Shown here: piece by piece, positions 1-8,947 of the stretch
How the letters are laid out: every line of letters begins with the position of its first letter
How positions within the stretch are numbered: the first letter of the stretch is position 1
Origin: a virus
Lineage: Duplodnaviria > Heunggongvirae > Uroviricota > Caudoviricetes
DNA: 8,947 bases
IMG/VR virus record: IMGVR_UViG_2698536443_000011
Location: 1-8,947 of that record
Reading direction: 5' to 3' (one strand)
Made by a program: the position numbers and the translations under genes
The notes under the pieces: model-generated
The model's input: the letters and a program-made list of their open reading frames with translations, nothing else
The model's database searches: none
Told to the model about the DNA's origin: nothing

Positions 1-28
1 TGACTAGTCTAAAAACTAGTATTAAGAC

Positions 29-48
29 TATCACTTATTTAAGTGATA
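29..48. promoter_or_regulatory. Perfect 8-bp inverted repeat with 4-bp spacer downstream of the fiber gene (operator-like or weak hairpin)
   Basis: tatcactt-attt-aagtgata at 29-48, 17 nt past the fiber stop. A second AT-rich palindrome lies nearby (actagt at 3-8 and 15-20). No U-tract. Confidence 0.3.
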
Positions 49-64
49 CTGGTTGTCTGGAGAT

Positions 65-1324
65 TCAGGGGGCCAGTCTAACCTGATCATATGCCGTAAC
101 GTTGTAACCATTACCACCATGAATACGGAAAAACACACTACGCCCGTTTTGTGGAATTGTTGCGGTTGCCAATTTGAAATATGCAGATACGTTTTCGCTA
201 GAATTGGGAACAGACATAACGACGTTTTTAACAAACATCTTATCAACTTCGGCTTTGGTGTATGCACCAATCTCGCCAGGAGTCGGCTTATCACCTTCGT
301 GATACATCTTATAGCTAAAGTTCTTCTGTCCTTCTCTATCAAAACCATAGGTTTCAACACGAGATCCACCAGACGCATAACGGAAAGTAAATCCGCGACC
401 GTGCGCTTTACCGGCAGAATGAGGAACGTTAAGAGTTAGATCCATGAGTCCATCTTGACCATTGGTACGGAAAGCACCAAAGTAGTTAAGATCTCTCGCT
501 GTCTGGTCTTCCAAATAGTTAGCTGTCTTGCTTAACAGATACCCACCATGCTTAGTATTGGTATTCTTCTTGATGTAAGCAGCATCGGCACTACCTTCAA
601 TAGAATCAATTCGCTGGTTAGCTGCGGCAATTGCGGCATCGGCACTGGCCTTGTTATTTGCAACAGTTCTTTCAATGGCTGTCTTATTCGCAGAGACCGT
701 ACTAGTAAGATTGGTGATCTTCGTGTCCGCATCTTTCTTATTATCCGCTACCGTCTTTTCTATTGCTGATTTATTTGCTGCGACAGTATTCGTTAAGTTG
801 GTAACGTTGGTATTAGTCTGATCAACTCGCGCATTAATATCTGTCTTGTTCTTGTTAATTGTCGCGTTGATAGTATCGCGGGTTGAAGTAATAGTCTGAT
901 TCAGTTCAGTCTTAGCAGCCGCCAGAGCGTTAGCAGCTTCGGTTTTATTGTTACCTACTGTGGTAGTCAAAGCATCAATTCGTTTGTTGGCTGCGGTATC
1001 GCCAGCAGTGATTGAAGCATTGAGGGTATCACGGGTAGAAGTGATAGTCTGATTAAGTTCAGCTTTAGCACTAGCCAGATTATCAGCAGCTTCTTTCTTA
1101 TTTGCTGCAATAACCTTATCTGTGTTGGCCTTGTTGGTGTCTACTTTCGTATTCAGTTCAGCGTGTTTTTCTGGAGAAACACTAATTTGGACTACGTTAT
1201 TATTTTTGTCTTTGGTGTAAATCACATGATCCGCCAGTTGTAAGGCGATCTCACCCTGTGATAATTGTTCCGGCGTTGGTTTTTTACCAGCCGTTTGTGT
1301 GCGTTTAAATTGGATCGACTGCAT
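65..1324 (-). CDS. Tail fiber-like protein with a degenerate-repeat shaft and a C-terminal globular (receptor-binding-like) domain
   Basis: 419-aa ORF with SD AGTGAGGTGATTCG-ATG. The central ~250 aa is built from short degenerate repeats with a T-V/I-x-x-N-K-x-x-A core, including two near-identical ~26-aa copies (SAKAELNQTITSTRDTLNASI / AAKTELNQTITSTRDTINATI) 51 aa apart. KPTPxEIGA-type motifs occur at the N-terminus (KKPTPEQLSQGEIA) and C-terminal domain (GDKPTPGEIGAYTKAE). The C-terminus is rich in Gly/Tyr/Phe/Asn, as in receptor-binding tips. Stop TGA at 65-67. Confidence 0.6.
   Translation of the reverse strand: MQSIQFKRTQTAGKKPTPEQLSQGEIALQLADHVIYTKDKNNNVVQISVSPEKHAELNTKVDTNKANTDKVIAANKKEAADNLASAKAELNQTITSTRDTLNASITAGDTAANKRIDALTTTVGNNKTEAANALAAAKTELNQTITSTRDTINATINKNKTDINARVDQTNTNVTNLTNTVAANKSAIEKTVADNKKDADTKITNLTSTVSANKTAIERTVANNKASADAAIAAANQRIDSIEGSADAAYIKKNTNTKHGGYLLSKTANYLEDQTARDLNYFGAFRTNGQDGLMDLTLNVPHSAGKAHGRGFTFRYASGGSRVETYGFDREGQKNFSYKMYHEGDKPTPGEIGAYTKAEVDKMFVKNVVMSVPNSSENVSAYFKLATATIPQNGRSVFFRIHGGNGYNVTAYDQVRLAP
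870..1095 (-). repeat. In-frame degenerate direct repeat inside the fiber gene (period 153 bp = 51 aa), within a wider field of shorter degenerate repeats (~600-1150)
   Basis: Plus-strand segments around 871-940 and 1024-1093 are near-identical (for example agtctgat at 893-900 and at 1046-1053), encoding the two ELNQTITSTRDT(L/I)NA(S/T)I copies. A second pair, TNLTNTVAANKSAIEKTV / TNLTSTVSANKTAIERTV, is spaced 29 aa apart. Confidence 0.6.
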
Positions 1325-1337
1325 CGAATCACCTCAC

Positions 1338-1371
1338 TATAAAACAGGAATAAGGGAGGCGTTAACCTCCC
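1338..1371 (-). terminator. Probable intrinsic terminator between the tube (V-like) and fiber genes
   Basis: Minus-strand RNA reads GGGAGGU-UAAC-GCCUCCC (7-bp stem including one G-U pair, same UAAC tetraloop as the capsid terminator) followed by the U-rich but interrupted tract UUAUUCCUGUUUUAUA. Confidence 0.45.
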
Positions 1372-1403
1372 AGCGTTCATGTTTTATTTAGGTAGGAGAA
1401 TCC

Positions 1404-2237
1404 TTAGTATTCGCCGAAATCGATCCGGTCAGTCTTAGCCACTGCGCCAATTTCGCTAGGTGTCGGTTTCTCATTGGTGGAATATACCTTGATCCATTCA
1501 GAGCGACCGTTTTCCTGAATATTTCGGACGCGTAAACGTGGTGCGCCAGAAGTATTACAGGTTAATTGCCATGCGCCATGCTCATTAGCTTGAAGGTGAA
1601 TTAATGATGTGTCGGCTGAATATGGATTACCGCTAGCAGTTCCCTTGTAAGTTACGAAACGGTTTCCGGCTAAAGCATCACTATCAATCGGACCTGTGAA
1701 TGGATGTACACCTGCACCTACGCCATAATCCCCGCGACGGAGAAGACGACCCTCCGTTGCAATACCGCGATCCAAAATCCCGCCATCTGGTTCAAGTTTA
1801 AATTCCAGTGTTACAGCTTTGTTATCACTACCACGGGTTTTGTGTGATGTGACGTAAGCATCATAGATGACATAGTAACCAGTGTTAGCAGCACTATAGC
1901 CAGAGTTCACAACATAGAACATACGGAAGCGTAAAGGTGTTTTATCCTCTACCGCTTTCATCAACATTGCTTGATGTTCGTCATCCAGAACACGGTTTAA
2001 CGTGAGTGTTGTCGGTTCCAGTCTACGATAACCAGCAAGTTTCCCCGTAGCGTCCTGATCGTACTCTTCCAGAGTTTCAATCTCTGTGGATTCTGTTAGC
2101 GTAGGGAATGCTGCGACGTTCTCAATAGAACTAAAGCTAGGATCGAAAAAGTCCGGCTGGCTATCGACCATAGTAGAAACGGAGACTTCAACATGCGACC
2201 CCGTAAAAATATCTAAGTTATCATGCGTAATATTCAT
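1404..2237 (-). CDS. Major tail tube protein (lambda gpV-like N-terminal domain) with a C-terminal fiber-like module in place of the usual Ig-like domain
   Basis: 277-aa ORF in the V position after the FII-like and U-like genes. The core EEYDQD...TLTLNRVLDDEHQAMLMKAVEDKTPLRFRMFYVV...VTLEFKLEPDG has the same layout as lambda gpV YDDSYLDDED...[33 protein letters not shown] (from memory). The C-terminal ~55 aa (...SGAPRLRVRNIQENGRSEWIKVYSTNEKPTPSEIGAVAKTD) is homologous to a module in the downstream fiber protein. SD TAAGGGGTAATA-ATG. An intrinsic terminator follows. Confidence 0.5.
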   Translation of the reverse strand: MNITHDNLDIFTGSHVEVSVSTMVDSQPDFFDPSFSSIENVAAFPTLTESTEIETLEEYDQDATGKLAGYRRLEPTTLTLNRVLDDEHQAMLMKAVEDKTPLRFRMFYVVNSGYSAANTGYYVIYDAYVTSHKTRGSDNKAVTLEFKLEPDGGILDRGIATEGRLLRRGDYGVGAGVHPFTGPIDSDALAGNRFVTYKGTASGNPYSADTSLIHLQANEHGAWQLTCNTSGAPRLRVRNIQENGRSEWIKVYSTNEKPTPSEIGAVAKTDRIDFGEY

Positions 2238-2246
2238 TATTACCCC

Positions 2247-2669
2247 TTAAAAACGCGCTAGATAAGAAAATTTAAGGCTAAGTGTCCCAACGATACCACC
2301 ATCACTAGAATCATCGTCATAATCGGTATTAGAGGCTACTGGAGTGATATCTGAAATTGAGAAGCCCAAATCTTTAAAACGTGGGTTATCCGGCTGAATC
2401 TGGATTATCTGGCAAATACCCTCATGGATTTTTGTTTCATGAATCTGAGAATATAATTGCATTTCGATAACGCATTCAGCTTGCATTGCATTACCACCAC
2501 GGACCCTAGTGTAAGTCTCATTCATGCCAGTAATCCAACAAACCACGTCATCACTAAAACCTTGCTGAGCTTGTTCTACGTTTAAAGCCAGACCTAAATC
2601 TTGTTCGATAATATCTTGCAAGGCGCGTTTGATTTTCAGTCTCGGCATATTATTAACGGTAGCGAGCAT
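2247..2669 (-). CDS. Tail terminator / head-tail connector protein, lambda gpU-like
   Basis: 140-aa ORF. The C-terminus NTDYDDDSSDGGIVGTLSLKFSYLARF resembles the lambda gpU C-terminus GYDYRRDDDAGLWSSADLTYVITYEM (from memory). SD AGGGGGTACAC-ATG. Its TAA stop is embedded in the SD of the next gene. Confidence 0.45.
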   Translation of the reverse strand: MLATVNNMPRLKIKRALQDIIEQDLGLALNVEQAQQGFSDDVVCWITGMNETYTRVRGGNAMQAECVIEMQLYSQIHETKIHEGICQIIQIQPDNPRFKDLGFSISDITPVASNTDYDDDSSDGGIVGTLSLKFSYLARF

Positions 2670-2943
2670 GTGTACCCCCTGCTAAAGTGATAAAGCAATC
2701 ACAAGTATTGTCACCATTGCGCTTAACGTATTGAACTTTGAAACGCTGGTTTTCTACTGTGACAATATCACCTTGCTTTAAGTCTCCCTCACGACAGAAT
2801 AGAAATTCTGTTTCTGTCATTACCCCCGATTCGTCGGTAGTAGTAATTTCATGATAAGCACGAATTGATTTACCACCTTCCACCGAAAATACAGGAGCAC
2901 TTCGGAACATTCTTGATAATTGTGATTCTGATAATTTGAACAT
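2653..2943 (-). CDS. Head-tail joining protein, lambda gpFII-like
   Basis: 96-aa ORF. LFCREGDLKQGDIVTVENQRFKVQYVKRNGDNTCDCFITL parallels lambda FII LFVRTDEVRQLRRGDTLTIGEENFWVDRVSPDDGGSCHLWL (from memory). SD TAAAGGGGGTAACT-ATG. Its 3' end overlaps the next gene by 17 nt. Confidence 0.55.
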   Translation of the reverse strand: MFKLSESQLSRMFRSAPVFSVEGGKSIRAYHEITTTDESGVMTETEFLFCREGDLKQGDIVTVENQRFKVQYVKRNGDNTCDCFITLAGGTHARYR

Positions 2944-2971
2944 AGTTACCCCCTTTATGGAGTATTTACAT

Positions 2972-3000
2972 ACAAAAAAGCCCCACCGTTAGGCAGGGCT
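2972..3000 (-). terminator. Rho-independent terminator downstream of the capsid gene
   Basis: Minus-strand RNA reads AGCCCUGCC-UAAC-GGUGGGGCU followed by UUUUUUGU: a 9-bp stem with two G-U pairs, a UAAC tetraloop and a U-tract. It lies directly after the TAA that closes the in-frame extension of the capsid ORF. Confidence 0.7.
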
Positions 3001-3091
3001 AATTATTATTCTTTAGTTTTACGCTGTTTTTTAGCTGTGGCTTTCGCCTTAACCGTCTGGGATTCTTCTTCCGGTTCAGGAATCAGATTTT

Positions 3092-3112
3092 CTTCCCCCA
3101 AATCGGGGGAAG
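3092..3112 (-). promoter_or_regulatory. Perfect GC-rich hairpin 23 nt downstream of the capsid UGA stop; no U-tract
   Basis: Plus strand cttccccc-aaatc-gggggaag: 8-bp perfect stem with a 5-nt loop. The flanks on both strands lack a U-tract, so it is not a canonical terminator. Confidence 0.4.
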
Positions 3113-3134
3113 GTTCAGATGGTTCTACAGGAGT

Positions 3135-5147
3135 TCATTCAGCGGAGATGTGAAGAACTTTCAGAGCTTCCGGCTGAGTAACAACATAATCCAGGTCTAC
3201 CCAGATTCGCGGAACGATAGCAGACTGTGCGCGGTAGGTAGTGTCGTCCATATCCAGTTCCAGACCGCCCCACTCACCAATGGTGATACCGTCGAACGCG
3301 CCCAGAACGATGTGGTCTGCCGGGATAACACCAGAAGTAACTACTTCGTAACCAGCCAGTTTGCCGTTTTCGATGATATAACCGGAAACGCCGTTATCTT
3401 TCAGGGTAGATTCCAGTTCAGCAGCAGTTGCACCGCTCATCGCAAACTTGATCGCCTGAGCAGGAACGCCAGCGTCGGTCAGTGCTGCAATTTCTTTCAG
3501 GAAGTCTTTGTAAGAGAAAGCGGCTTTCTTAGTAACGCGACCCGCGTCTACCAGTTGCTTAACCAGACCAGCCGGACCACGGTCGTTAGCTTTATCAGAC
3601 AGAATCAGTTGTTCCAGTTTGATGCGAACAGCTTTGTTAATGTGATCAGTGATCAGGGTAGCGATGCCGGGAACTTGCTTTATGCTAGCTCTGCTGATCG
3701 GATTCCCACCAGCGAACGTCTTAGGAGCCATTTTCACGTTTGCAAATTCAGCTTTACCTTCCGGTGCAGCACCGTTTTCATCAACGAAGCCGAAAGCGTC
3801 AACGCTGGAAGCGGTCATTTTTGGTACTGCGATCGGGGAAGTCAGGCCAGACAGAACGGTTACACCGAGGCGGCCTAAAACACTCTGAGGCAACAGCATT
3901 TCGATGTAGGATTCAGTCAGCAGTTTTTCATCAGTAACAGCGGTCAGAGTAGCTTTGGTGTTACCTTCGGAAGCAGCACGCAGAGCAGCAGCCGGAACGA
4001 ATACAGAGCCACCACGAGCAGCACGACCACGCTGCATAGTTGCAGTAGCAGCCATTGCGGAATATTCAGCTTCGTTAGCACCCAGAGCAGCACCATCTAC
4101 CAGAGAGCGAATTACGTTGTTCAGGTCAAAGATTTTTTCCATTTTAGAGTCCTTAATTTGTTGTTCGTTATTACGTTGAGCATTGGTAATGTTATTTAGT
4201 GCCTTAGTGCGGAATGCTTCCGGCGTAATTCCTTTATTTGCCAATGCGCGTTTAAATTCTTCATCGTCTTCGTTAATATTTAGCTCGCGTGCAATTTCGC
4301 GAATTTCTAATTCGTCTTCTTCGGAACGTTCAGCCACTTCTTCGATTTTTTCTTCTTCAACCGGAGCGGCTTCACGTTCTTCTTTTACTTCTTCTGTTTC
4401 CCGAACAGTTGAACTATCATCATCAACACTTTCAGGATGTTCAGCGTCTTTTCCGTCTTCGAGATTTTCATCTTCTTTATTCTCTTCAACTTGGCGCTCT
4501 TGAGTTTCTTCTACTTCCGATTCTTTATTTTCTTCTACCGGAGTTTCTTCAACCTGAGCGGCTTCTTGTTCTTCTTTGATTTCTTCGATTTGTTCTTTAG
4601 TCATATCGTGTTTAGCCTCCAAATTAACTGTGATAGTATTTAGAGAGCGATTTAAACCGACCGTATCGTCTGCGGGAACGGTGACAAATGAGAGTTCATA
4701 GGGTGCCCACTTAGTAACAATCAATTGTCCTTTGGTGTAGTCGATGTGATATTCTTTAATGTCATAACCGACAGAAATTTTTTCCATCGTACCTTCAATG
4801 ACTTTATTACGAATATCATTAGCCAAAGTGCCATGCTTAGAGAATTTAACCAGAGCACGGCCTACGTTATCCGCATCGATTCGAGCGTCGCAGACTACAC
4901 CTAAATGATTATCGAAATTATGATTGAACAGCAACGGAGCGTTATTATTCAGACGAGACAGATCAACCGCTTCCGGTGTATGTACCAGAATTTCATCTAA
5001 TACCACCATTTCTTGATTTTGCTCATCCCAGAATTGGCGCTGATAAGGCTGTTCACTGGAGAAAGCAATTTCAAATTCGTATTGATCGTTATGCCCTTCG
5101 TTAATAACTCCACCGTAACCGTTAAGTTCGCGGCGAAATTTAAGCAT
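3135..5147 (-). CDS. Tripartite head protein: N-terminal prohead serine protease domain (HK97 gp4/S78-like), Glu-rich scaffold-like linker, C-terminal HK97-fold major capsid protein
   Basis: Residues 1-170 carry protease-like motifs (NHNFDNHLGVV..., MEKISVGYD with a candidate catalytic Ser, ELSFVTVPADD resembling the HK97 protease C-terminal motif). Residues ~175-300 are extremely acidic (EEIKEEQEAAQVEETPVEENKESEVEE...). Residues ~330-670 are Ala/Gly/Thr-rich and capsid-like. SD AAGGTGATTAA-ATG at 5147. Stop TGA at 3135-3137, followed 135 nt later by a strong intrinsic terminator. Same architecture as the tripartite capsid gene described for Salmonella phage Gifsy-2. Confidence 0.8.
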   Translation of the reverse strand: MLKFRRELNGYGGVINEGHNDQYEFEIAFSSEQPYQRQFWDEQNQEMVVLDEILVHTPEAVDLSRLNNNAPLLFNHNFDNHLGVVCDARIDADNVGRALVKFSKHGTLANDIRNKVIEGTMEKISVGYDIKEYHIDYTKGQLIVTKWAPYELSFVTVPADDTVGLNRSLNTITVNLEAKHDMTKEQIEEIKEEQEAAQVEETPVEENKESEVEETQERQVEENKEDENLEDGKDAEHPESVDDDSSTVRETEEVKEEREAAPVEEEKIEEVAERSEEDELEIREIARELNINEDDEEFKRALANKGITPEAFRTKALNNITNAQRNNEQQIKDSKMEKIFDLNNVIRSLVDGAALGANEAEYSAMAATATMQRGRAARGGSVFVPAAALRAASEGNTKATLTAVTDEKLLTESYIEMLLPQSVLGRLGVTVLSGLTSPIAVPKMTASSVDAFGFVDENGAAPEGKAEFANVKMAPKTFAGGNPISRASIKQVPGIATLITDHINKAVRIKLEQLILSDKANDRGPAGLVKQLVDAGRVTKKAAFSYKDFLKEIAALTDAGVPAQAIKFAMSGATAAELESTLKDNGVSGYIIENGKLAGYEVVTSGVIPADHIVLGAFDGITIGEWGGLELDMDDTTYRAQSAIVPRIWVDLDYVVTQPEALKVLHISAE

Positions 5148-5167
5148 TTAATCACCTTTAATTGATT

Positions 5168-5184
5168 GGGGGCATTGCGCCCCC
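5168..5184 (-). promoter_or_regulatory. GC hairpin in the portal-capsid intergenic spacer, just upstream of the capsid SD
   Basis: Plus strand gggggc-attgc-gccccc: 6-bp GC stem with a 5-nt loop. It sits between the portal stop (5193) and the capsid SD (about 5152-5158). No U-tract follows on the minus strand. Confidence 0.35.
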
Positions 5185-5192
5185 GTTGGTTA

Positions 5193-6704
5193 TTAGGGAT
5201 CGGCTGGGGAATTTTTTTCTTCACCCTCACCATCAACGATAATATTTAGTGCGCTCTTTTCGGCTTGAATCTCTGAGAATACTTTTTCAGGATCGTCACC
5301 ACGTTCTAATATAACGGCAGTACGTGATTTAAGTCCTTTATCAATTAAAGCAATCTCGGCGTTTACGTCTTTAATTGGATCGACGGATTCAAAACGCGGA
5401 CGAATAATAGTAGTGTTCTCGATAATATGCGGAATTGCCGTAATACGAATCGGAACAATACCACGCGCGGAATAATGGCGTAGATACGCTTCGAAAATTG
5501 GCAATACCACTGTTTCAATTAATTTGTTTTGCAGTGCTTTAACGCGCGTTCTTTGAAGTAATTCGCCGTAGCGTGCAGCGCTGTAATTTATTTGGCTAGT
5601 ATCGCCAGTTAAGCCCTGATTGAACACGCCAAGACCCATTGCTATGCTAGTGAACATACCAGCGTTAAATGAATTGAAATCATCGCCGCTTTGCGTGGAT
5701 TGAATACTCTTGATCGTTGCCCCTTCCGGCAATTCCTGAATAGTACCCGGCGCGAAATCGTGAATAACTTCCGGCGCTTGATATTGTTCATCATCTTCAC
5801 CAGTATCAAAATCGTCACCAGAATCTTTCGGACGCTCGATGAACGCCATGCTACTAGCTGAAATTCGTTTCTGGACCAGTACAGCTTCGCGGAATGCGTC
5901 TTGATGTGCGATATCCTTAATCACTGGCAGGAAGTCAGTCACCCCACGCAGAGATTCAGCCGCAAGTGGTTGATAATAATGGCATACTTGCGAAGCATCT
6001 ACGCGATAGTTATCACCTGTGTAAGTCTGAGTCAGTAGGTTGATTTTACGAAACCAAAATGCAACAGGGCGCATTGTTTCTACGTCATACTCGATCCCCT
6101 GATAGATAGCACGTTCTTTGCTTACTTCACGGTTGAGCGTCCAGTCGCACTTATCAGCAGACAGGATAGAAACATTTAACTCATTGTTTTCTTTGGTTAA
6201 AACAATGAAGCACTCACCGCCCATTACGCGCTCACGTTCAGCCATTACCAGCAATTCACGGAAGTTAAAGCGACCGTTACGAGAGAAGCGTTTAGCATTC
6301 TGCGCCCACTTCCAGAAAGCATTCTCGATCTGCTTATTCAGTGCGCTATCAAGTTTGCCATTTGATTTAACGATTGATGGCTTCGGATCTAGGCCAGTAC
6401 CTACCACCATATCGGTTATGTATTGCGTGTAGCGACTGCCTACGGAAGTGTTTAAGGCCAGAGTACGACCCTGATCATAAAGGCGCTTACCGTTCGATTT
6501 GAGAGCCTTATTGAAGGTTCCTGTAATGGTGTCTTGTTGAAGTGATCCATCAATACGATCACCAACCAGTCCTAAACTCCGTTGAGATAGGTCTTTCTGG
6601 AATTTTTCTACTTGCTTATCGATGAAAATTTTTGGTTGTTGCTGGCGGTGATTAGTTTTAACTGGAGTTTCTACCGCCTTTTTGCGTCGAAAAAGATTAA
6701 ACAT
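5193..6704 (-). CDS. Portal protein, lambda gpB family
   Basis: 503-aa ORF immediately downstream of terminase and the W-like gene. The segment FTSIAMGLGVFNQGLTGDTSQINYSAARYGELLQ parallels lambda gpB IAAGLGVSYEQLSRNYAQMSYSTARASANE (recalled from memory). Acidic C-terminus. SD TAAGGGGTAAATC-ATG. Stop TAA at 5193-5195. Confidence 0.8.
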   Translation of the reverse strand: MFNLFRRKKAVETPVKTNHRQQQPKIFIDKQVEKFQKDLSQRSLGLVGDRIDGSLQQDTITGTFNKALKSNGKRLYDQGRTLALNTSVGSRYTQYITDMVVGTGLDPKPSIVKSNGKLDSALNKQIENAFWKWAQNAKRFSRNGRFNFRELLVMAERERVMGGECFIVLTKENNELNVSILSADKCDWTLNREVSKERAIYQGIEYDVETMRPVAFWFRKINLLTQTYTGDNYRVDASQVCHYYQPLAAESLRGVTDFLPVIKDIAHQDAFREAVLVQKRISASSMAFIERPKDSGDDFDTGEDDEQYQAPEVIHDFAPGTIQELPEGATIKSIQSTQSGDDFNSFNAGMFTSIAMGLGVFNQGLTGDTSQINYSAARYGELLQRTRVKALQNKLIETVVLPIFEAYLRHYSARGIVPIRITAIPHIIENTTIIRPRFESVDPIKDVNAEIALIDKGLKSRTAVILERGDDPEKVFSEIQAEKSALNIIVDGEGEEKNSPADP

Positions 6705-6714
6705 GATTTACCCC

Positions 6715-7212
6715 TTATCGCGTAAGACGTAATTTGATATTTTTAATCGGGCTAATTCCCTGTTTACGTCGTTCGGCTTGAATTAATTTAGATAACTGAC
6801 GTTCATAATCGACTTTTAGAGTCTGGAGAACACCCAATGACTCATAAACGAAAGTATTCCCTTTCACTGTCATTTGAGATAATGCGGCTTCGTCCCCAGA
6901 TAAACGGGCGAAAATAACTTGCTCGATTAAGGCGATAGTTTCCCGCAGATATTCTTTTTTGGATTGTTTGGCGAATACTGGTAAAACAGTTAATTCCTGC
7001 ATTGATATCAGTTCTTCTTCCAAAGTTATTACGATGGTATATTTACCTTCGGCAAAATCTAAGGTTTTAATCTCATGATTAGCCGGAGAATCATCAACCT
7101 GATAGATGATACCTTTATTATTATTTCCTACCTGAATTGTTACACCCTCTTCATTCGCCAGCGTGACTTTTTCGCCTTTACGAATTACTAAGGGAATTAG
7201 TTCTAAACTCAT
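6715..7212 (-). CDS. Hypothetical virion morphogenesis protein; C-terminal third weakly resembles lambda gpW (head completion), N-terminal ~90 aa unassigned
   Basis: 165-aa ORF filling the gap between terminase and portal genes, the position gpW occupies in lambda. Shine-Dalgarno TAAGGGGTAATT precedes the ATG. Its TAA stop is embedded in the portal gene's SD. The C-terminal LGVLQTLKVDYERQLSKLIQAERRKQG loosely resembles lambda gpW (SVSDLKKYIAELEVQTG...RRRG). The functional call is weak. Confidence 0.5.
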   Translation of the reverse strand: MSLELIPLVIRKGEKVTLANEEGVTIQVGNNNKGIIYQVDDSPANHEIKTLDFAEGKYTIVITLEEELISMQELTVLPVFAKQSKKEYLRETIALIEQVIFARLSGDEAALSQMTVKGNTFVYESLGVLQTLKVDYERQLSKLIQAERRKQGISPIKNIKLRLTR

Positions 7213-7284
7213 AATTACCCCTTATTTAATTGTTATTGGATTAACAATATTTAGGAGTAAGCCGCCCCGAAGGACGGCGAGTTA

Positions 7285-8947
7285 TTAGAACGATGTTACC
7301 CAGCTACGGCCTCTATTTGGGCGTCTGGCGATGTTTTGACGTTGTGGTCGTGTGATTGGCTTAGTTTCTTCGATTTGCTCGTTAGATTGCGTTTCAGGAG
7401 CTTTTACGGGTTCTTCGACAACACGGTTTAAGCTGTCTTTCATTGCAATGAGTTTATCCCATGACATTTTTGAAAGGACGTAGCGAGAAGCAGCATAGCT
7501 ATAAACCAGACAGTCGAGAGCCTCGTTTCGGGTACTACCTGGATTTTTCACCCAACGCACGCCAGTAGTAGTACGCTTGATGGATTCACTCAAAAGCTGA
7601 TCGAGATAATCATCAGGGACGGTGTCTGATATTTCTAAGGCAATATGAGGATTATCTTTCAGGTTTCTAACCAGCATTTCACGAACAGCAGATTTACCAA
7701 CGTTAACGCCCAGCATAAGCAATTCATGACCACCTGTGCGGGTAGGTTTAACCGGAATCACTGGAGCATTACCAGATGAACTACCTTTGATCGCGTGTAG
7801 ATTCTTCCACTTGCCGCAAATACGGTATCCGGCTTGAGTGAATCGACCGTTCGATGTATCAAGGAAGCTGGCGAGCATTGGTACACGTTCACCATTAACG
7901 TTATAGAATTTGGTTTTCTTGAAGTTAACCAGGCGATCCCAAACAGGTGATTCATATCGTTCACAGTTATGATCGTAAAAGCTGCGGTGATCCAGAATGT
8001 AAACCTTATCTTTCGCTACACCTAAGATGGTAGATTCTGCGCGGTCCAATTGCTGGTCAATTCCTGAACACAAGAAAATCACGTCATCAGGGATATTCTC
8101 GATAGAAACATCTGTTTTGAGTTGTTCCAGTTCATTTGCTTCTACTGCCGTGTCCTGATCGTCGTATACCTTGCCTAACACGGTGTTATAAAATGATTGT
8201 AGATCAAAGGATTGCCACGCATGACTAAAATCAACCACACAAGCGCGGATCGTGCTGAATGGTGAATACAGACGGCTGATCCAGAATCCGGCTACTTCAC
8301 TTTCACGGGTTACTCGCCATTCACCAGCAGCCACCGCCCTGATCCGCTCTCCTTCTGTCCATGCGTTCTTACAGTGGGGGCAAATATAACGAGCGGTATC
8401 AGGATCGGGTAAGTTCTTACCATCGATGTTACGCCATTCAAATTGAACGTTTTCCCACTCGATCACCTGGTGTTCCCCGCAATGAGGACACGGAACAAAA
8501 AACATACGCATATCACTTGATAACCATTGCTGGTTAATGCTTCCCAGCTTACTGGTCGGGGTACTGGATACGACTAATCGGCCTTCGTCGCCAAAGGTAG
8601 TTAAACGGTTAGCAGCCAGTGCCACCGGATCACCTTCTTCTGAGGCTGTAGCAGCATCGATTTCGTCTAGTAGTCCGACCTTTGCAGTCTTACCGCGCAG
8701 GGTCGATGGACTGGTTAGCGATACCATGTACAGGAAGTGATTCGTTTTTAGCTGTAGCTGGTTATTGTTGTTAACCGCATTGCGATCATTCTTGTCTGTA
8801 ACCACGTCTTTTAATGCATCACATGCTTCGATAGACGGTCGGTGAACCGCCCCGGGTTTCCTGGAGAGTGTTTTATCTGTGAACTCAGGCTGCCAGATCA
8901 TCGTTTCCGATGGAAGCATAATAAGCTTTTTCTGCTTCTGCCGGAGG
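7285..8947 (-). CDS. terL: Terminase large subunit, lambda gpA family; 5'-partial (reading frame stays open to the window edge at 8947, so the true start lies outside the window)
   Basis: Translation contains the paired Cys/His motifs [16 protein letters not shown] and [12 protein letters not shown], plus [17 protein letters not shown] and [15 protein letters not shown]. From memory these match lambda gpA (FHVACPHCGEEQ / ARYICE / AYSPFTTW / AGIDSQLDRYE / RRNEALDCFVYALAA). The VGLLDEIDA stretch resembles a Walker-B-like segment. The frame upstream of the first Met (8919) has no stop before 8947. Stop TAA at 7285-7287. Confidence 0.85.

Follow-up and report, generated by a model that had tools for sequence, protein, structure and literature searches.

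The locus analyzed in this work raises the question of why a long-fibre gene should directly follow a gene for a protein with the tail-tube fold, at the point where lambda-like siphoviruses are expected to encode the G and T chaperones and the tape measure. The stretch concerned (positions 1 to 8,947 of IMG/VR record IMGVR_UViG_2698536443_000011, Caudoviricetes; 8,947 nt in all, referred to below as the window) was initially annotated as coding for a terminase, a W-like protein, a portal, a capsid protein and FII-, U- and V-like proteins. This order was confirmed: the structural module has all its open reading frames (ORFs) on the minus strand, where they follow one another as terminase, 165-aa protein, portal, protease-capsid, 96-aa, 140-aa and 277-aa proteins and the fibre ORF. 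It was also correct that the window holds no G/T chaperone or tape-measure gene, none having been detected in family scans. Three explanations had been offered: that the tail-assembly genes lie beyond the window, that the fibre gene is a moron-like inserted cassette, or that the virion has an unconventional tail.

The position of the fibre gene is the norm of this phage lineage and not the mark of a moron. The explanation preferred as a whole, and considered probable, is that the 277-aa protein, called TTP1 here, is an ancient tube paralog that anchors a T4-like long fibre, the canonical tube protein being TTP2, encoded behind the fibre gene and beyond the window. Such a tube-protein paralog carrying a T4-like fibre would constitute a lineage-wide architecture that has so far gone unannotated. 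The features on which the argument depends are as follows.

1..80, minus strand: terminal 80 nt of IS2 (IS3 family), the transposase-upstream end, in the orientation of the fibre gene; 100% identity to IS2 ends
65..1324, minus strand: truncated long-fibre gene, native part 81-1324 (~414 codons); an ORF with a T4 gp37-like N-terminus
1325..1403, minus strand: TTP1-fibre spacer, 79 nt, with a hairpin, an interrupted U-run and a Shine-Dalgarno (SD) sequence; minimum free energy -27.8 kcal/mol, z -4.3
1404..2237, minus strand: TTP1, tube-protein paralog and proposed fibre anchor, 277 aa
2247..2669, minus strand: tail terminator of the lambda gpU / T5 p142 type, 140 aa
8843..8947, no strand assigned: terminal 105 nt of an IS1203-type (IS3 family) element at the second contig break; 100% identity

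Window ends and gene order in intact relatives

Both ends of the window are formed by insertion sequences (IS). Of 5,426 complete E. coli genomes, 4,676 contain matches to bases 1-85, at 20,757 places in all and with up to 100% identity; in an annotated example the match lies directly outside an 'IS3-like element IS2 family transposase', and the alignment of phage relatives to the window begins only at base ~76-80. The IS2/fibre boundary was placed at 80/81, where the sequence begins exactly at the end of an element that is multicopy in genomes. At the other end, positions 8843-8947 were found in 24,846 places in 4,082 E. coli genomes, annotated as 'IS3-like element IS1203 family transposase', and the collinearity of the terminase gene with its relatives (e.g. 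L013) breaks off at 8842. In extent the window is identical with draft contig CYFN01000100.1 (8,947 bp; assembly GCA_001283445.1). The second junction of IS2, an element that makes a short target-site duplication (5 bp), must therefore be on another contig of that assembly. The fibre gene was thus cut by IS2 at 80/81 and the terminase gene by the IS1203-type element at 8842/8843, and the draft assembly broke inside both multicopy elements.

The window lacks tail-assembly genes because the assembly stopped in the multicopy IS2 copy that cuts the fibre gene; what had been taken for the end of the gene set is an assembly break. Contig ends lying in IS elements can imitate absent genes. The 419-aa fibre ORF has the strong SD ascribed to it but is not a complete gene, since IS2 cut it after ~414 native codons and supplies both the final residues (RLAP) and the stop codon. 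The window is a remnant, riddled with IS elements, of a siphovirus-type prophage (~35 kb) that has a lambda-like head module, and the prophage of this strain is defective because its terminase and fibre genes are disrupted.

The closest uninterrupted relative was found in E. coli 23CRST001 (locus L001; NZ_AP045758.1, ~3.017-3.048 Mb; 96.6% identity over window positions 80-2400). There the fibre gene is followed by genes for a 157-aa TTP2, a gp38-like adhesin, G-like and T-like proteins, an 809-aa tape measure, a pb9-like Dit, a hub protein, a DUF6950 protein and a 1,258-aa J-like tip protein. The tail-assembly genes, from G and T to the tip, lie downstream in the uninterrupted relatives in general, as the first of the three explanations had it. 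The inspection of the region beyond coordinate 1, which had been proposed as a check, was made in L001: in its chaperone genes (9803-10491, minus strand) the T-like ORF lies in the -1 frame of G and opens six codons before the G stop, and the candidate slip site G_GTA_AAG is followed directly by TAA, the G stop codon.

The synteny set comprised loci from Salmonella (L005, L006), Proteus (L007), Enterobacter (L009, L010) and Serratia (L068), Leclercia-type loci (L069, L070) and 56 IMG/VR contigs of ~35 kb, all annotated against the L001 proteins; about 60 loci from at least six genera were long enough to be judged. In every one of these the FII-like gene and the gene for the ~140-aa protein are followed by TTP1 (275-1,349 aa), by the fibre gene or genes unless these are fused to TTP1, and by TTP2 (147-267 aa). 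The full order in intact relatives is terminase, W-like, portal, protease-capsid, FII-like, terminator, TTP1, fibre(s), TTP2, G, T, tape measure (~720-840 aa), Dit, hub, DUF6950 and J-like. In the Salmonella-, Proteus-, Serratia- and Leclercia-type loci, as in some of the E. coli type, TTP2 is immediately upstream of G/T; in L001 and the other E. coli-type loci a single gene (gp38-like) separates them. TTP1 is never adjacent to G/T in the relatives, as the fibre gene(s) and TTP2 intervene, and the V position is held by TTP2 except in the Enterobacter/Klebsiella type.

In this last type (L009, L010, L052, L054, L056, L058-L064, L073 and L074) the order is TTP1, fibre, TTP2, DUF6950, J, four small genes (including one for endonuclease VII), G, T and tape measure, so that the tube gene is separated from the chaperone and tape-measure genes; the G-T-tape-measure block after J was seen in L073 and L074. 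A tail without a tape measure was considered for these loci and rejected, since the extended loci show the block downstream of J. In the chromosomal copy L009 a serine recombinase gene is present shortly after J. A T2-type gp38-like gene (Gp38_N) follows TTP2 in many E. coli relatives (10534-11040 in L001; also L050, L051 and L053) and lies between the fibre gene and TTP2 in other lineages; the fibre of L001 carries, in addition, an S74 intramolecular chaperone of its own. The Proteus locus L007 has two successive genes (10882-11478, 198 aa; 11489-13516, 675 aa), both with the gp37-like N-terminal docking motif, which suggests alternative or stacked fibre proteins that would compete for one TTP1 joint.

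On this background, a fibre gene that had newly entered the tube-chaperone junction as a separately regulated, moron-like cassette is very improbable. The idea drew on the upstream hairpin, the strong SD and a match of 9/12 to a sigma-70 promoter, and fibre genes are indeed notoriously mosaic, with fibre length and C-terminal domains varying among the relatives. However, a fibre gene encoding the same gp37-like N-terminus occupies the same position in all relatives examined, in at least six genera, so that its occurrence is not sporadic; uniform placement in close relatives is what the initial annotation itself had said would make the gene a lineage norm rather than an insertion. Moreover, the GC content of the fibre region (0.42-0.43, within a window range of 0.37-0.50) does not deviate, and in other lineages the upstream gene is tied to the fibre by gene fusion. 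The proposed promoter (TTAACG-18-TATAGT) was dismissed as a chance-level match: five matches of that grade occur in the window, fewer than the 7.0 +/- 3.1 expected by chance, and conservation of the sequence does not extend beyond the E. coli type. Least probable of all is a tail built without tape measure and chaperones, or a tail-less satellite that borrows its tails. It would account for the lack of G/T and tape-measure genes in the window and for the Enterobacter/Klebsiella-type loci, which at first sight run from TTP2 straight to DUF6950-J, but the window stops within IS2, genes for G, T, tape measure, Dit and hub are present in intact relatives, and in the Enterobacter/Klebsiella type (L073, L074) these genes have merely been relocated downstream of J. 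Of the unconventional tail there remains, in a sense other than the one meant, an unusual second tube-protein paralog that appears to be dedicated to the fibre; the tape measure is present.

Two tube-protein paralogs and a proposed gp36-gp37-like joint

The tube domain of TTP1 is collinear with TTP2, and the two proteins, 31% identical over 156 aa (E 1e-18), are paralogs. In TTP1 the tail-tube beta-sandwich fold covers residues ~14-163. An AlphaFold2 model based on 29 homologues was confident over residues 14-163 and of low confidence over the Gly-rich residues 164-201, after which a moderately confident beta region extends to the C-terminus. Residues 164-201 contain the conserved motif GDYGVGAG...GNRFVTY, and the residues that vary least in the family (G169, G172, G174, G176, G182, D185, G191-N192-R193 and T196) fall within this segment of lowest model confidence. 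Judged by its conservation, the segment is a Gly-rich element that would be more than a passive linker.

The family assignment of TTP1 is weaker than that of TTP2. No Pfam or NCBIfam model covers TTP1, the window protein matching only PHROG 158 (E 1.4e-8), and PF06199 was matched by 7 of 29 TTP1 family members (best E 3.8e-4); a profile search of solved structures with TTP1 gave nothing significant. TTP2 of L001 obtained better tube-family scores, with PHROG 158 at E 1.6e-20 and matches to Pfam Phage_TTP_11/12 and NCBIfam tube_lmo2291. It is also the more conserved paralog: mean identities were 48% among TTP2s, 34% among TTP1s and 23% between the two. In a neighbour-joining tree of 13 genomes, all TTP2s formed one clade and the twelve split-type TTP1s (those followed by a separate fibre gene) another, with the sole one-piece TTP1 sampled (L069) on a long branch beside the TTP2 clade. 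The duplication appears to predate the divergence of these lineages.

Gene fusions bear on the role of TTP1. An exhaustive profile search of 1.84 billion cluster representatives returned 301 relatives, the top 150 of which were re-scanned locally. Of these 150, 89 have 709-1,563 aa (median 971), with tube domain, linker and middle domain at positions ~2-240 and a chain that runs on into a fibre shaft; 16 are split-type proteins with a D-x-G-x-F tail and 8 are short, tube-only forms. The long one-piece forms end in S74 chaperone, gp37_trimer or Phage_tail_C_2 domains and are annotated as 'tail fiber protein' or 'pyocin knob domain-containing protein' in Serratia, Rouxiella, Pantoea, Leclercia and Yersinia. 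In L069 and L070 a 1,349-aa one-piece protein is encoded between the terminator gene and a Phage_TTP_11 tube gene of 147-151 aa, after which come G, T, a 726-aa tape measure, Dit, hub, DUF6950 and J. Since a covalently attached fibre of ~1,000 aa is implausible on a tube subunit present in ~180 copies, TTP1 was assigned the role of fibre anchor and TTP2 that of the tube. The V-like label of the 277-aa protein holds for its fold, and the canonical tube role would pass to TTP2.

In the split-type proteins the fibre is encoded separately, and the two products appear to meet in a copy of the joint that T4 makes from gp36 and gp37, where a gp36 trimer attaches to the N-terminal region of gp37 (PMC3004832). 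TTP1 would consist of a tube domain, a flexible Gly-rich linker and a short gp36-like segment (residues ~202-277, with W.KVYS..EKPTPSEIGAV and the C-terminus DRIDFGEY-COOH), and the conserved C-terminal tail is proposed to dock the gp37-like N-terminus of the fibre. Across the family the extension varies from ~110 to more than 400 residues, always with W.K[VI]Y[ST]..[ED]KP[TQ]...[IV]GA[VI] and an end of the form [IVL]-D-[FLA]-G-x-[FY]-COOH; all full-length split-type TTP1s (275-1,209 aa) end in D-[FLAE]-G-x-[FY] or a close variant. T4 gp36 (NC_000866) contains KIYSEYNKPQAADNDFVSK and ends in ...QDFGYY. The one-piece forms have neither the D-F-G tail nor an internal FKR...GEL motif; in most related lineages tube domain, linker and fibre shaft make up one polypeptide, in which a joint would be unnecessary.

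The gene after a split-type TTP1 starts with a gp37-like N-terminus in every locus. Residues 1-62 of the window fibre align with residues 4-65 of T4 gp37 (32% identity, E 2e-11), and the protein matches PHROG 1699, 'long tail fiber distal subunit' (E 1.6e-27). The gp37-like N-terminal ~60 aa are followed by a repeat-rich helical shaft. Intact orthologues have 1,121-1,207 aa in E. coli-type loci; that of L001 has 1,167 aa, with a Gp34_trimer domain and a C-terminal S74 intramolecular chaperone. Tail and N-terminus vary together: VDFGYF, in the pair most similar to T4, goes with MATISEIKFKRSKTAG...GELAINL, IDLGTF with MAKIKFKR..., and LDAG[EV]F with MANNKV[KR]HYRT.... The link between TTP1 and gp36 rests on direct comparison with T4, since the Pfam scan was empty. 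The 395-aa family member P0085 is 32% identical to residues 6-165 of T4 gp36 over 166 aa (E 1e-15), the TTP1 family profile gave a short match to gp36 (E 3.7e-5), and the Pfam gp36 model does match the Serratia long form P0093. A docking of the fibre on TTP1 through a joint of the gp36-gp37 type is what we infer from these motifs.

The likeness to T4 covers the adjacency and order of the two genes, the D-F-G-x-[YF]-COOH end of the upstream product (gp36: QDFGYY), the 'K[IV]YS..[NE]KP' segment from the N-terminal region of gp36 and the gp37 motif IQFKR...AG..P....L..GE[IL]A[IL] at the start of the downstream product. Unlike T4 gp36, which is a free protein attached via gp35 to the gp34 half-fibre on a myovirus baseplate, the gp36-like piece here shares one chain with a siphovirus tube-fold domain, to which a Gly-rich linker connects it. 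The 277-aa version lacks the greater part of the gp36 body, no homologue of gp35 was seen, and the joint is predicted. Neither a gp35-like nor a separate gp34-like gene was found in the module, the Gp34_trimer domain occurring solely inside the L001 fibre, and Pfam and PHROG scans of the fibre detected no N-terminal collar domain of the Stf type, the N-terminus being gp37-like.

Predicted place of the fibre on the tail

The tube domain of TTP1 is proposed to form a single in-line hexameric ring in the tail tube, whose six arms would pass into two trimeric fibres. A place next to Dit, like that of the p140 ring of T5, is slightly favoured over one under the terminator, because a fibre anchored at the neck would not reach past a tail of ~120 nm. 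Lambda gpH has 853 aa, and the 1,247-aa distal half fibre of T4 is ~70 nm long. Scaled from the latter, a fibre of ~1,170 aa would measure ~60-70 nm, and the tail length of ~120 nm was inferred from the 809-aa tape measure in comparison with lambda gpH and the 31 discs of the lambda tail tube (PMC12617516).

The anchoring of siphovirus side fibres has been solved for only two cases, T5 (p132 collar on p140) and Ur-lambda (Stf collar). In T5 a single ring of the tube paralog p140 adjoins Dit, and a p132 collar around that ring holds the fibres (PMC10038345). The presence of an extra tube-protein paralog besides the main tube protein is common to T5 and the present lineage. However, the T5 paralog is undecorated, and a separate Ig-like p132 dodecamer collar holds the L-shaped fibres pb1, whereas TTP1 itself runs on into the fibre or a gp36-like docking tail; p140 is a duplicated-domain trimer and TTP1 has a single tube domain; and the T5 genes are located in the baseplate cluster, the TTP1 gene by the terminator gene. 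Family scans of the window genes and of the annotated L001 genes from fibre to J gave no match for an Ig-like collar gene. In Ur-lambda the N-terminal domains of Stf form an external 12-mer collar with flexible linkers to four trimeric fibres (PMC12617516). There too the fibre's N-terminal domain makes a tail ring, and short flexible linkers to the trimeric shaft absorb the symmetry mismatch (PMC12617516). In contrast to TTP1, the Stf domains are without the tube fold and surround gpV/gpM from outside, where the tube fold of TTP1 leads one to expect an in-line hexamer and two fibres; moreover, stf lies downstream of J and the fibre gene studied here between the terminator and tube genes.

Tube proteins with an outward C-terminal extra domain on the tube-fold domain are also known (the Ig domain of lambda gpV, SPP1 gp17.1*, T5 pb6), and SPP1 has two tube-protein forms in one tail, the longer of which arises by frameshift. 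In those phages small globular domains decorate the major subunit, whereas here a fibre joint or a whole fibre is carried by a divergent paralog. The 'two major tail proteins' of the JBD30 paper were set aside as a precedent, as the term means two subunits of one protein. The T5 authors stated that side-fibre anchoring must differ in other siphoviruses (PMC10038345). A third way of mounting side fibres in enterobacterial siphoviruses with lambda-type heads, by an in-line paralog ring with six linkers and two trimeric long fibres, made in one piece or through a transplanted gp36-gp37 joint, is possible and is put forward tentatively.

Two other placements of TTP1 were weighed against this proposal. 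A TTP1 ring directly under the tail terminator, the fibres then being neck fibres or whiskers, is rather unlikely. The TTP1 gene comes right after the terminator gene and ahead of the tube gene, and the gene order of tail modules often mirrors position, an argument that was applied to p140 in the T5 paper (PMC10038345). The known side fibres of siphophages are nevertheless anchored near the tip, on p140 by Dit through the T5 collar and on gpV/gpM through the lambda Stf collar, and a neck fibre of ~65 nm on a ~120-nm tail would fall short of the cell surface alongside the J-like tip. It is considerably less probable that the 277-aa TTP1 is the major tube protein, a gpV analogue with a C-terminal surface decoration, with TTP2 forming a minor ring (e.g. 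as tube initiator) and the fibre attached elsewhere. The complete tube fold collinear with TTP2 would fit this, as would the first place in the gene order right after the terminator gene, the hairpin behind TTP1 as behind the capsid gene and the frequency of decorated tube proteins, Ig-like domains being present on lambda gpV and T5 pb6 (PMC10038345). Against it stand the continuity of the module with a long fibre in 89 of the top 150 representatives, hardly compatible with ~180 copies per tail, the better curated-family scores and higher conservation of TTP2, and the location of TTP2 within one gene of G/T in all sampled lineages but the Enterobacter/Klebsiella type. In addition, the strong hairpin of the capsid type belongs to TTP2, and the extension of TTP1 is gp36-like instead of Ig-like.

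Several observations weigh against the preferred assignment of TTP1 as an in-line fibre anchor. The gp36 similarity of the window TTP1 is short and weak (35 columns, hhalign probability 71%), and the Pfam Phage_T4_gp36 model matches none of the 29 TTP1 members of alignment A1. The co-variation of tail and N-terminus could reflect linkage or shared ancestry in the same lineages. The AlphaFold2 model of residues 164-277 has low-to-moderate confidence and, being that of a monomer, provides no evidence of trimerisation. Ring position, copy number, in-line incorporation and the hexamer-to-trimer, two-fibre arrangement are deductions, and the TTP1 gene beside the terminator gene argues for a neck-proximal ring over a tip-proximal one. 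The hairpin right after TTP1 resembles the pattern behind the high-copy structural genes (capsid, TTP2), so that TTP1 could be abundant. Finally, the lineage is known from sequence alone: tblastn of a phage collection with TTP1, TTP2 and the one-piece N-terminus returned, apart from distant Vibrio tube proteins for TTP2, only the chimeric-looking record of Escherichia phage DCP80 (PQ671644.1; L004/L077). In this 141-kb 'Straboviridae' record the first ~25-30 kb are a siphovirus-type module of the present kind, where TTP1 forms the N-terminal part of a 698-aa protein, and T4-type genes follow, including motA and two inverted copies of rIIA. The record was probably assembled as a chimera of a T4-like phage and a prophage induced along with it, and was not used as a phage reference.

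In the literature searched, coverage of which was incomplete, no description of tube-fold-anchored fibres was found, which is weak evidence of novelty. If the anchor is as proposed, it would be a third anchoring solution, in which the T4 fibre joint is reused in a non-contractile tail, and it would explain a 'hypothetical protein' that is widespread in prophages of E. coli, Shigella, Salmonella, Klebsiella, Enterobacter, Proteus, Serratia and Yersinia. The split joint, composed of the DFGxY tail and the gp37-like N-terminus, would be a natural plug-in point for the exchange of receptor-binding fibres, useful in host-range engineering, and would permit fibres to be swapped without touching the tube ring. 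The TTP1 gene is at risk of being mislabelled as the tube gene or left hypothetical, by pipelines and human readers alike.

Spacer hairpin, fibre repeats and head genes

The 79-nt spacer folds far better than shuffled sequences. Its hairpin, GGGAGG-TTAAC-GCCTCCC (1371-1354; stem 1371-1366/1360-1354), was scored in the terminator scan with a 7-bp stem of 5 GC pairs and a 4-nt loop and is followed by an interrupted T-run (1353-1339), UUAUUCCUGUUUUAU. The TTP1 stop codon lies at 1404-1406, and the SD, GAGGTG, at 1335-1330, 5 nt ahead of the fibre ATG (1324). The intrinsic terminator placed here by the initial annotation is supported in part: the GC-rich hairpin and the interrupted T-run are present, but a generic terminator scan was at chance level, with 3 sites against 2.6 expected. 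At the same position in Salmonella (L005 10829-10905) there is a canonical terminator of unrelated sequence, GCCGTCC-TTCG-GGGCGGC + T6 (z = -5.5). The Proteus spacer (L007 10826-10884) has a weak hairpin of the scan type and folds little better than shuffles (z = -1.7), its minimum-energy fold being a different stem that pairs the SD; the Enterobacter type has a spacer of 12 nt and no hairpin.

For the E. coli, Salmonella and Proteus spacers, folding predicts a pairing of the fibre SD with an anti-SD of the CCUC type that lies upstream of it. In the E. coli type this anti-SD (CUCC) sits just past the TTP1 stop codon in a predicted outer helix, a position suggestive of translational coupling. 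The hairpin behind TTP1 probably acts as an attenuator or an mRNA-end element, and together with the predicted occlusion of the SD it may keep TTP1 and fibre expression lower than that of the genes on either side. The strongest hairpins of L001 lie 3' of the capsid gene, TTP2 and J. Those after the capsid gene (16921-16900) and after TTP2 (11084-11060) are near-identical, which suggests a shared attenuator marking two high-copy structural genes.

Residues ~75-180 of the fibre (window 858-949 and 1011-1102) contain imperfect repeats of ~51 aa, NKxEAAxxLAxAKxELNQTITSTRDT.NA.I, that gave rise to spurious Apolipoprotein and Filament matches in Pfam; this segment is probably a coiled-coil.

The remaining features of the window belong to the head and head-tail module.

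7285..8842, minus strand: large terminase (gpA type), 5'-truncated by the IS; Pfam GpA_ATPase and GpA_nuclease
6715..7212, minus strand: head-tail joining protein in the lambda W position, 165 aa; PHROG 5774 'head-tail joining', E 3.2e-8
5193..6704, minus strand: portal protein, lambda family; Pfam Phage_portal_2, E 1.6e-63
3135..5147, minus strand: prohead protease (S78) fused to an HK97-fold major capsid protein, 670 aa; Peptidase_S78 E 4.5e-10 and Phage_capsid E 5.9e-24 (Pfam), PHROG 617 E 1.4e-91
2979..3000, minus strand: strong terminator-like hairpin 3' of the capsid gene, AGCCCTGCC-TAAC-GGTGGGGCT + T5; in L001 copies of it stand behind the capsid gene and, near-identical, behind TTP2
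2653..2943, minus strand: FII-like head-tail attachment (stopper) protein, 96 aa; Pfam Phage_attach, E 4e-5

A profile search of solved structures with the profile of the 140-aa tail terminator gave nothing significant. The Phage_attach match of the FII-like protein reached 24.6 bits against a cut-off of 26, and the L069 orthologue gave an equally weak match. Of the terminase gene ~518 of ~634 codons are left, the large terminases of relatives having 634 aa; the ATG at 8919 chosen by the ORF finder (ORF 7285-8919) and the first ~25 codons are IS sequence.

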